Origin: Microgenomates bacterium OLB23
Lineage (GTDB): Bacteria; Patescibacteriota; Microgenomatia; UBA1406; HO2-37-13b
Reading direction: 5' to 3'
Length of the DNA stretch: 64,000 nt
Assembly: GCA_001567245.1 (NCBI GenBank)
Contig: LMZU01000001.1
Location: 14,235-78,234 of the forward strand
The position numbers and the translations under genes were made by a program. The notes under the pieces are model-generated. The model was not told where the DNA came from. It did not search any database and saw nothing but the letters and a program-made list of their open reading frames with translations. Within the stretch, counting starts at the first letter, position 1, and every line of letters begins with the position of its first letter. Positions 53,562-55,967 of the stretch are shown in pieces.

Positions 53562-54601
53562 ATGGCATTTTTATTTATTTGGATTCTTTATTTCGTTCTT
53601 TTATAAACAGCTTGCTGTTTGTTCCATTTATTGATTTGCTTTACAGGCTAAAATTTCAGAGAGCCGTACAAGAAACGAGAGATGCATTCAACAAAAAACT
53701 CCAATATTCGATTCATTTCATAAACATAAAGCAGGCACACCCGTTGGAGGCGGAATTTTAATTGTTATTACAACACTCTTATGCTTTACATTGTTTATAT
53801 TGTTCATGGTTGCTACAGGTAGAAATATTGTGTCTAACTATCAGTCGATAGTATCCGAAATAAAAATACTTCTTTTTACATTTTTGTCTTTTTCATTTTT
53901 AGGATTATATGATGATCTAAAGAAAATCTTCCTCTGGCAAGACTCTTCTTTTTTTGGATTAAAATTACGCCATAAGCTTTTGATTGAAATAATTCTTTCA
54001 GTTATTGTTGCATATTGGATTTTTGCAGAGCTAAAAATTAGCATTATTAACATACCTTATTTTGGTGTATATCATTTGTCGTGGTGGTACATTCCCTTTG
54101 CTGCCTTTGTTATTGTTGCCTTTTCTAATGCTGTTAACATATCTGACGGGCTCGATGGGCTTTCGTGTGGCGTTTTATTAATTGCCCTTTTTGCATTCTG
54201 GGTAATATCAATGTCAATTTTAGATACACCTTTACTCATATTTATATCAGTGTGGGTGGGTGGGCTACTTGCATATTTGTACTTTAATGTATACCCGGCC
54301 AGAATTATGCTAGGAGATACAGGTGCACTTGCATTTGGTGCAACTTTTTGCAGTTATCGGATTGCTCTTGGGCAAGGTGTTTGCACTAGGTATTATTGGT
54401 GGGGTATTTGTTGTGGAAATTACCACATCTTTTATTCAGCTAATGTCTAAAAAATTCCTTGGTAAAAAGGTATTCCCCGCAGCTCCATTGCATCTATGGC
54501 TACAATACAGAGGGTGGGAAGAACCAAAAATAGTCATGCGCGCATGGCTTGCTGCGGTATTTTTTGCCATGGTAGGTCTTATGATTGCTTTCCTTAAATG
54601 A
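53562..54601 (+). CDS. mraY: phospho-N-acetylmuramoyl-pentapeptide transferase MraY; at least three frameshifts
   Basis: ...PFIDLLYRLKFQR..|..HKHKAGTPVGGGILI..|..NAVNISDGLDGL..GDTGALAFGATF|AVIGLLLGK... joined at T5 53568-53572, A6 53693-53698 and the T5 near 54346. Confidence 0.85.
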
Positions 54602-54623
54602 CCTGCCCACGTATAATATAACT

Positions 54624-55967
54624 ATGAATGCACCTCATAAGGCAGATGTTTTTAGATTTAGCGAGTATTATGTTGATCTTCAAAAGGGTGATATACGCTT
54701 TAGCTACGAAGTTATCAACAACAACAAAGAAACCCGCTTTGATGAAGTATGGCATATAGGTGATGCACTCAGTACCACCAAACTCACGGCACAAGACCTT
54801 GCGCAAACAATTCAGGCACTTCATATTATAGTAGGTATTAGTTACTACAAGGCTTTTTTGCCAAACCATATAGAAACACCTTCATATACTTTGACACAAA
54901 GTCAGGCAGTATTTTGGAATCTGGTATATACCAAAGGACTAGGTGAGTTTTTTTACAAAAATAATTTAGATTTTCGTAACCTGGTAAACTTTCCTTTTGG
55001 CCAAGATGTAGCTATTAAGCCACTAGACGTGGCTTTTACTGAAAAGGCGCTGATTTTGCACGGAGGTGGCAAAGATTCTCTTGTCACCACAGAAGTAGTA
55101 AAGGCAAGTAATACAGATTACGACTTATTTTGTCTAAATCCGAAACCGCTGCAATACAACGTGGCCACACACTTGAACAAGCAAATGCTCTCAATAGAAA
55201 GAACAATTGATCATAAGCTTATTGATTTAAACATACAGGGATTGGTTTATAACGGACATGTGCCAATATCAACGTTCTACACTTTTGCAGCTGTACTCAT
55301 AGCAATCCTACATACACATAAATACGTCATAATATCAAGCGAACGAAGCAGTAGTTATGGTAACGTGCATTATCTTGGTGAAGACATTAACCATCAATGG
55401 AGCAAATCAGAAGAAGCCGAAGATATGTTTCGTGAATATATAAACACATATATTTCACCCAATCTCACCTATTTTTCTATGCTGCGTCATCTTTATGAGA
55501 TTGCAGTAGTAAAAAAATTCATTGAATACCCAGAGCATTTTGCCGTGTTTTCTAGCAGTAATCACCATTTTAAAAATGAGCACGTCTCACATAAATACGC
55601 AGTGGGATTACTCCTCCCCAAAAACTATTTTGTATTTATCCTTATGTCAGCATTTCTTTCTAAGGCTCAGTTGATTGAAATTTTTGGTGAAAACCTATAT
55701 GCACGTCAAGAGCATATAGATGTATTTAAAGAGCTTTTGGGACTACATCGCATAAAGCCATTTGAGTGTGTGGGAACGCCCGAAGAAACCATTGTGGCAA
55801 TGTATCGGGCATTCAAGCGTGGCGAGTATAATGAAAGTCCGGTTATGAATATGTTCGCGGCAGAGATTCTCAACAAGAGCACAAACCTTGATGCAATAAA
55901 CCAGCAGGTTTTCTCAATTGGCAACAGTTCTCATATTCCCGCAAAGTTTAGAGACTACATACTATGA
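54624..55967 (+). CDS. PP-loop-like ATP pyrophosphatase-fold protein between mraY and murD; candidate MurL (glycopeptidyl-glutamate epimerase)
   Basis: Intact 447-460 aa ORF (TTG 54585 or ATG 54624), with LILHGGGKDSLVT resembling the SGGxDS PP-loop. It overlaps murD by ATGA. The functional call rests on context and memory of the family. Confidence 0.45.
   Translation: MNAPHKADVFRFSEYYVDLQKGDIRFSYEVINNNKETRFDEVWHIGDALSTTKLTAQDLAQTIQALHIIVGISYYKAFLPNHIETPSYTLTQSQAVFWNLVYTKGLGEFFYKNNLDFRNLVNFPFGQDVAIKPLDVAFTEKALILHGGGKDSLVTTEVVKASNTDYDLFCLNPKPLQYNVATHLNKQMLSIERTIDHKLIDLNIQGLVYNGHVPISTFYTFAAVLIAILHTHKYVIISSERSSSYGNVHYLGEDINHQWSKSEEAEDMFREYINTYISPNLTYFSMLRHLYEIAVVKKFIEYPEHFAVFSSSNHHFKNEHVSHKYAVGLLLPKNYFVFILMSAFLSKAQLIEIFGENLYARQEHIDVFKELLGLHRIKPFECVGTPEETIVAMYRAFKRGEYNESPVMNMFAAEILNKSTNLDAINQQVFSIGNSSHIPAKFRDYIL

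Follow-up and report, generated by a model that had tools for sequence, protein, structure and literature searches.

Locus Organization and the murL Candidate

The analysed stretch of DNA (hereafter, the window) comprises 64,000 nucleotides of contig LMZU01000001.1 (positions 14,235 to 78,234 of the forward strand) from assembly GCA_001567245.1 of Microgenomates bacterium OLB23, an ultra-small, Woesebacteria-like bacterium of the candidate phyla radiation (CPR)/Patescibacteria. The subject of this study is an open reading frame (ORF) in the division and cell wall (dcw) cluster of the window, which is located between mraY and murD, upstream of ftsW and murG (Table 1), and is predicted to encode MurL. 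In Xanthomonas, MurL epimerises the terminal glutamate (Glu) from L to D in a unidirectional, ATP- and Mg-dependent reaction with the formation of AMP (PMC8788868, PMC5808125). Two possible start codons of the ORF were compared. The ATG at 54624 (MNAPHK..), located downstream of the end of mraY at 54601, is more likely to be the start of murL than the TTG at 54585, because the same-genus orthologue begins with MN.. and residue 19 of the 460-aa frame is the first to be aligned with the family model. At the other end, the murL stop codon TGA (55965–55967) overlaps the murD ATG (55964–55966) as ATGA.

A comparison of the ORF product with NCBIfam revealed a match to the MurL model NF041275 (E-value, 1.1 × 10−91; 307.6 bits) extending over model positions 6–440 of 447. 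Precomputed PF26298 and PF26299 annotations are found on the window MurL, as well as on all of the 120 listed homologues. The local Pfam scan, which included the QueC family, gave no match at E ≤ 0.1 for this ORF, and a sequence search of the PDB gave no match either. More than 3252 homologues were found at E < 1 × 10−5. Among the matches listed, the named ones belong to Roizman-, Woese- and Levybacteria and to Minisyncoccia, and some homologues have already been labelled by the Joint Genome Institute (JGI) as this epimerase. In a scan of species genomes, which gave at least 595 loci, the closest named locus is that of a Candidatus Woesebacteria metagenome-assembled genome (MAG; 54% identity). 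The gene is present in a single copy in the source assembly, and its product is 52% identical to that of the syntenic gene in G201, a closed genome of the same genus, which served as the reference for synteny and for the frameshift census. By its similarity, the window gene is a true relative of murL.

In the source assembly (0.91 Mb, 47 contigs), the mraY, murD, ftsW and murG genes are all interrupted by frameshifts. One of those in mraY is located in a T5 run at about 54345, and the G201 counterpart of this gene is one intact frame of 357 aa. The string mraY-murL-murD-ftsW-murG is found in G201 in identical order, with all five genes intact. The census against G201 covered 473 orthologous ORF pairs (577 kb, 30 contigs) and revealed 220 frame changes, 195 of which are located at homopolymers of at least 5 bases; the genome-wide rate of homopolymer-associated frameshifts is about 1 per 2.6 kb. 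Since such frameshifts are found throughout the genome and the G201 genes are intact, the breaks in the dcw genes of the window are best read as technical artefacts rather than decay, and a pseudogenised dcw cluster was rejected. ORF-based readings of any gene in the source genome need a comparison with relatives; examples of frameshift sites in the window are 54345, 55572–55624, 55991–55998, 56200–56208 and 57340–57347.

In murL, about 17 codons are out of frame between an A5 run (55572–55576) and a C4A5 run (55616–55624). As read, MurL residues 318–334 are NEHVSHKYAVGLLLPKN, while the alternative frame ..MSTSHINTQWDYSSPKT.. (..TQWDYSSPKT..) fits the family motif and agrees with G201 and with sequences P0002–P0011. 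The Trp of this motif is present in 77 of the 78 homologues that constitute the MurL family alignment (A1), and the window sequence is the only one without it. Four co-varying Cys residues (SSCN ... WCGxCPKC) are found in 53/78 sequences, and the remaining 25 have lost all four together. The Cys-less subfamily (SSSN and W[DE]YxSPKT) takes in the window protein (55551–55625) and its genus.

Table 1. Coordinates of the dcw locus features within the window.
Feature	Position	Strand	Remarks
mraY (phospho-MurNAc-pentapeptide transferase)	53562–54601	+	Split by homopolymer frameshifts; PF00953 on piece 53791–54450; three-frame reading
murL	54624–55967	+	447 aa from ATG; maximal ORF from TTG 54585, 460 aa
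PP-loop-type nucleotide-binding motif LILHGGGKDSLVT	55050–55088	+	GGGKDS at 55062–55079
murL out-of-frame stretch	55575–55625	+	Compensated indel pair; true reading ..MSTSHINTQWDYSSPKT..
murD, MurD2 type (predicted L-Glu-adding ligase)	55964–57201	+	~411 aa across two +1 frameshifts
NVYEELHNH in murD	56449–56475	+	Glu (GAG at 56461) at the E. coli D182 position
Arg codon AGG in GGQNRGFDF of murD	56887–56889	+	Equivalent to E. coli MurD Lys348 and X. oryzae MurD2 Arg358
ftsW	57173–58283	+	PF01098, E = 3.8 × 10−91; N-terminus broken by frameshift at T8 (57340–57347)
murG	58280–59364	+	Broken by homopolymer frameshifts; G201 counterpart intact

Predicted Fold and Nucleotide-Binding Loop of MurL

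The AlphaFold2 model of MurL, built with the 78-sequence alignment, has a predicted local distance difference test (pLDDT) score of 92.6 and a predicted template modelling (pTM) score of 0.92; the confidence falls to 56–63 at residues 311–330, which overlap the out-of-frame stretch. Foldseek analysis of the model against the PDB revealed that the top matches are all PP-loop adenylating enzymes, including QatC, QueC, Cap9, TtuA, ArgG (argininosuccinate synthase), ThiI and MnmA (E-values from 3.5 × 10−4 to 4 × 10−2; probability up to 1.0). The template modelling (TM) scores of these matches are a modest 0.27–0.40 when normalised to the query, because MurL has extra domains; for QueC and the QueC-like enzymes QatC and Cap9 (probability 1.0), the scores normalised to the target are 0.54–0.60. 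The model thus resembles in its fold the solved PP-loop ATP pyrophosphatases, and MurL also has, in the variant form GGGKDS, the SGGxDS-type loop of the PP-loop superfamily. In the model, this loop is located after strand E139–145 and before helix H150–161. The hhalign alignment of the MurL profile to E. coli QueC placed EKALILHGGGKDSLVT on KRAVVVFSGGQDSTTC, with HGGGKDS on SGGQDS. The 78 homologues show no variation at loop residues G147, G148, G149, K150 and S152, and at least 90% of them keep D151; further invariant residues are H212, E240, H257, Q258, W259, K261, C382 and E388.

QueC and QueC-like enzymes (Bacillus subtilis QueC, 3bl5; QatC, 9y01; Cap9, 9nto) have the alpha/beta PP-loop fold in common with the MurL model, and the nucleotide loop of QueC is found at the place equivalent to the MurL loop. 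In most MurL relatives, the C...CxxCxxC pattern of QueC also recurs at the matching C-terminal region. QueC binds Zn via such a four-Cys motif, and we take the four-Cys pattern of MurL to resemble the QueC zinc site. MurL differs from QueC in that it has no detectable sequence-family membership (no match to the Pfam QueC family or to PDB sequences), has an added N-terminal beta domain and a C-terminal helical domain, and has Gly in place of the first Ser of SGGxDS. The substrates differ as well: UDP-muramyl dipeptide for MurL, a deazapurine or a protein for the QueC-like enzymes. According to the reviews, MurL "lacks known conserved domains" yet forms AMP (PMC8788868, PMC5808125), and the QueC-like adenylating fold of the model fits this AMP-forming chemistry.

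An earlier note, made from the letters of the window without database searches, had described an intact ORF between mraY and murD with a stop codon overlapping the murD start, had seen in it a motif close to the SGGxDS PP-loop, and had named it as a candidate MurL. The ORF is indeed there (54585/54624–55967), and the overlap, the motif (now placed by Foldseek and hhalign) and the assignment to MurL over the full length of the family model were all borne out; the word "intact" does not hold for the codons that are out of frame.

Partner Ligase MurD

The murD frame was rebuilt over +1 frameshifts at an A8 run (55991–55998) and a T9 run (56200–56208), resulting in a protein of 411 aa with 56% identity to its G201 counterpart, which is intact; TIGR01087 and Mur_ligase_M/C matches are found on a 302-aa piece of it. 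According to the literature, residues E197, R358, P433 and F435 of Xanthomonas oryzae MurD2, which correspond to D182, K348, A414 and L416 of the E. coli enzyme, are determinants of MurD2; the E197D/R358K double mutant reverts specificity, while the P433 and F435 positions alone leave it unchanged (PMC8788868). An alignment to E. coli MurD revealed E, R, P and Y at these four positions of the window MurD, which means that both the signature Glu and the signature Arg are present (codons in Table 1), and the sequence SPGAPSYLMY supplies the Pro and an aromatic residue (Tyr) at the A414 and L416 positions.

The residue at the K348 position was then compared in two samples. The first, the phylum sample, consists of 201 Patescibacteria genomes (source genome G000 and G001–G200), in which Arg is found in 24 of the 26 MurL-linked MurDs, and Lys is found in all 26 MurDs of MurI-positive genomes and in all 12 MurDs examined from genomes that lack both MurL and MurI (Fisher p = 5 × 10−16 for Arg versus Lys). 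The second, referred to as the named loci, consists of the best 80 of at least 595 MurL loci from a scan of species genomes, all of them CPR-type MAGs; here, 75 of the 77 MurDs beside MurL have Arg. Exceptions to the signature are L026 (G134) and L043 (G010), in which MurL is found beside a MurD that keeps Lys at this position. In G134, murL and murD have a convergent arrangement, and the tree places this MurD among the canonical ones.

An IQ-TREE phylogeny of CPR MurDs, the MurD of contig C23 of the source assembly (discussed below) and E. coli MurD paired the window MurD with that of G201 (support 100/100) and placed it in a 24-row clade (100/99) composed of 23 MurL-linked MurDs and one MurD from another MurL-positive genome. 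The window MurD is therefore classified as MurD2-type, i.e., as a predicted L-Glu-adding ligase, both by its E/R/P/Y signature and by its place in this clade, which is what the earlier note had supposed. It matches the L-Glu-specificity residues of X. oryzae MurD2, with Tyr for F435 (PMC8788868). The differences from the X. oryzae enzyme are that the organism has no MurD other than the window MurD, which occupies the canonical dcw slot, and that, in the window clade, the residue equivalent to His183 of E. coli MurD is either absent or displaced by one position. This His is kept in 75 of the 79 aligned MurD rows, while the window MurD, G201, L145 and L146 have NVYEELHNH in common. Both the change at His183 and the loss of the four Cys of MurL are conserved in relatives and, for this reason, are real clade traits. 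A search of the PDB found no structure of MurD2.

Many third-party annotation (TPA) MAG records titled "uncultured Gammaproteobacteria bacterium" (loci L145, L148, L154, L155 and others) contain CPR-type murL-murD loci that are 40–54% identical to the window locus; the taxonomic labels of these records look unreliable.

Distribution of MurL and MurI in Patescibacteria

In the phylum sample, MurL is found in 29/201 genomes and a MurI match in 83/201, while 91/201 genomes have neither. Both are present in two genomes only, i.e., in the source genome and in G002, where the MurI match is partial (44 bits). A MurI match was detected in 2 of the 29 MurL-positive versus 81 of the 172 MurL-negative genomes (Fisher p = 2.2 × 10−5), and a MurI above the family cut-off in 0/29 versus 63/172 (p = 1.4 × 10−5), in tests that ignore phylogenetic non-independence. 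The MurI and MurL routes are nearly mutually exclusive in the phylum. MurI with a canonical MurD supplies, like the MurL route, D-Glu at position 2 of the stem peptide; unlike the latter, it racemises free Glu before ligation, and the racemisation proceeds without ATP. In many MurI-positive CPR genomes, murI is located directly beside murD.

Apart from the source genome, the phylum sample has 28 MurL-positive genomes; MurD adjoins MurL in 26 of them, and six of these pairs are single-ORF fusions (812–939 aa), including that of G183, a genome of the same order. MurD is likewise adjacent or fused to MurL in 77 of the 80 named loci, of which 12 are fused. The window MurL, too, is encoded together with a MurD2-type ligase. 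At lower ranks, MurL is present in 5/5 genomes of the genus and in 7/11 other genomes of the family, and all six MurI genomes of the same order are without MurL. MurI was not found in the 4 other genomes of the genus or in the 11 other genomes of the family, and no D-amino-acid aminotransferase (Dat) was found in the genus.

Second MurD and MurI-Like Gene of the Source Assembly

The raw source assembly contains two further genes that bear on the origin of D-Glu. The first is a canonical MurD gene (G000:C23:14936-16270), the product of which scores 413 bits against TIGR01087. Contig C23 (locus L088, 18,610 bp) has no synteny to G201 and is a composition outlier in the tetranucleotide principal component analysis (PCA). 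Its MurD is 63–69% identical to proteins of Ignavibacteria/Kapabacteria/Bacteroidota and clusters with the E. coli enzyme in the tree, and positions 6935–18610 of the contig (11.7 kb) match a section of a 218.7-kb contig from another assembly at 99.96% identity. The tetranucleotide PCA alone was indecisive on the membership of C23 and of contig C34 described below, which was settled by synteny with G201 and the taxonomy of homologues. C23 is a contaminant from the Ignavibacteria/Kapabacteria/Bacteroidota group. The contig also encodes CusB/HlyD, RmuC, UbiA, an FG-GAP protein, FMN_dh, a polyprenyl synthase and an ABC transporter. Contigs C4, C20, C29, C33 and several small ones are also without a counterpart in G201.

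The second is a MurI-like gene (C34:32738-33433), which encodes a protein of 233 aa that keeps both catalytic Cys motifs and scores 119 bits against a family cut-off of 146.65. It is found in a 3-kb insertion of three genes, and the genes on either side of this insertion are collinear with their G201 counterparts, with which they share 70% and 77% identity. The gene therefore truly belongs to the source genome, and a whole-bin chimera as its source was rejected because genus-syntenic genes are found on both flanks. The cassette (G000:C34:32016-34929; L089:10017-12930) encodes an orphan 492-aa protein, the MurI-like racemase and a GATase/peptidase-C26-like protein. A search of 5.8 billion proteins gave just four homologues of the orphan protein, which has no Pfam or NCBIfam match, and the trio of racemase, orphan and GATase recurs on the unrelated metagenome contigs L227 and L228. 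The racemase gene is not adjacent to murD, and the rare cassette, racemase included, is missing from all 15 same-family genomes. M20 peptidases are encoded near the cassette. We infer that the MurI-like protein is a dedicated member of an accessory cassette rather than the source of D-Glu for the wall; the cassette may make or recycle a compound containing a D-amino acid.

The earlier note had concluded that an organism with MurL would not need murI, and had held that a canonical murI together with a D-Glu-type MurD would speak against MurL. Dispensability of murI remains plausible, with the qualification that the source genome is the one exception among the 42 MurL-positive genomes examined. 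The search of the whole genome for murI yielded only the sub-threshold cassette gene, and the combination of murI and a D-Glu-type MurD, which the raw assembly seems to contain, falls apart on inspection into a MurD from a contaminant contig and an accessory racemase.

Proposed Mechanism and Alternative Explanations

The reading that we favour, with a probability of roughly 85%, is that a MurD2-type ligase and a MurL acting after ligation provide the wall with D-Glu without free D-Glu, and that the breaks in the neighbouring genes stem from sequencing errors. As its signature residues and clade placement suggest, MurD would attach L-Glu to the cell-wall precursor. MurL would then use its GGGKDS loop to adenylate the terminal L-Glu at the alpha-carboxylate; the motif and the fold were computed here, while the role of ATP and AMP is taken from the Xanthomonas enzyme. 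Such activation may acidify the C-alpha proton and thereby permit inversion, for which H212, E240, H257/Q258/W259/K261 and C382 are candidate acid/base residues. By these steps of ligation followed by epimerisation, the lineage would make the D-Glu of its peptidoglycan without free D-Glu.

The nearest characterised system is Xanthomonas MurL which, like the window MurL, is about 450 aa long and is encoded beside a MurD-like ligase. The relatives of the window MurL are found in genomes otherwise without MurI or Dat; the source genome has no Dat but has the sub-threshold MurI-like gene. MurL orthologues from Micromonospora and Salinispora were also assayed (Feng et al. 2017, as reviewed in PMC8788868, PMC5808125). 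The window MurL differs in being found in a distant phylum and in having its gene within the dcw cluster, where mraY and murD flank it; moreover, its subfamily has lost the four Cys, its relatives are often fused to MurD, and its epimerase activity is a prediction from sequence and fold.

Several observations weigh against the proposed route. The 307-bit score of MurL is below the NF041275 equivalog cut-off of 700 bits; as the model was built on Xanthomonadales MurL and the cut-off was tuned to this group, such a score is expected because the host phylum is distant from Xanthomonadales. The window-clade MurL is without the four Cys found in 53/78 relatives, and the window-clade MurD is without the otherwise invariant His183, so the activity of either protein could differ. 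Asp versus Glu at position 182 fails to separate the MurD classes within CPR, and the MurD of Streptococcus mutans, with Arg at the K348 position, still prefers D-Glu (PMC8788868). Finally, unlike the other MurL-positive genomes examined, the source genome carries a MurI-like gene (DSGxGG, ACNTAS, GCTHY).

This last gene is at the heart of the strongest alternative, to which we nevertheless assign only a small likelihood, namely that both routes operate, with the MurI-like racemase feeding D-Glu to a relaxed MurD and MurL being auxiliary or redundant. The gene is truly part of the genome, as judged from its G201-syntenic flanks, it retains both catalytic Cys motifs, and some MurDs with Arg348 still use D-Glu (PMC8788868). 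Against this, its product scores below the family cut-off, it is absent from the 15 same-family genomes, which keep MurL and MurD, it is not located beside murD as in many MurI-positive CPR genomes, and it travels with the orphan protein and the GATase/C26 peptidase as a cassette conserved elsewhere.

Slightly less probable still is that MurL adenylates the Glu alpha-carboxylate for an outcome other than epimerisation, such as amidation to iso-glutamine or the addition of a further residue. The nearest solved folds, QueC, QatC and Cap9, activate a carboxylate to give amide-type products, and the chemistry that follows adenylation is unreadable from sequence. On the other hand, MurL resembles the characterised epimerase family over its full length and at the level of an orthologue, its complementarity with MurI is expected of a source of D-Glu and not of an amidase, the partner MurD carries L-Glu-type residues, and no amidotransferase partner is present in the cluster.

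That the dcw cluster, murL included, is decaying while the canonical MurD of C23 and MurI do the real work is very improbable: the interruption of mraY, murD, ftsW and murG and the high score of the C23 MurD would suit it, but frameshifts occur at an equal rate over 30 contigs and mostly at homopolymers, the assembly holds only one mraY, ftsW and murG, and C23 is set apart by its missing genus synteny, the taxonomy of its MurD homologues and its near-identity to another assembly.

Implications for Cell Wall Synthesis in Patescibacteria

The MurD2/MurL pathway itself is known, and its phyletic extension to CPR is moderately interesting. Reviews confine the route to a small number of genera of Proteobacteria and Actinobacteria and promote it as a narrow-spectrum drug target (PMC8788868); the published distribution of MurL omits CPR/Patescibacteria (PMC8788868, PMC5808125), and our literature search found no paper linking MurL or MurD2 to this group. 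We tentatively propose, at a little under even odds, that post-ligation epimerisation by MurL/MurD2, separate or fused, is a main D-Glu route in a considerable share of the Patescibacteria (about 14% of the sampled species), as the alternative to MurI, and that the window clade has a stripped-down version of it (MurL without the four-Cys site, MurD2 without His183), along with an independently gained racemase cassette that makes a D-amino acid for another product.

The QueC-like PP-loop fold with its GGGKDS loop would offer a structural rationale for the formation of AMP, a chemistry that is described in the reviews as unexplained. For annotation, the locus means that automated procedures miss MurL, owing to an overly strict equivalog cut-off, and mislabel its partner as a D-Glu ligase, while a naive search for murI and murD would wrongly refute the presence of the MurL route, because of the contaminant contig and the accessory racemase. 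The scoring of cell-wall autonomy in reduced genomes would change accordingly: the absence of murI need not mean dependence on the D-Glu of a host.

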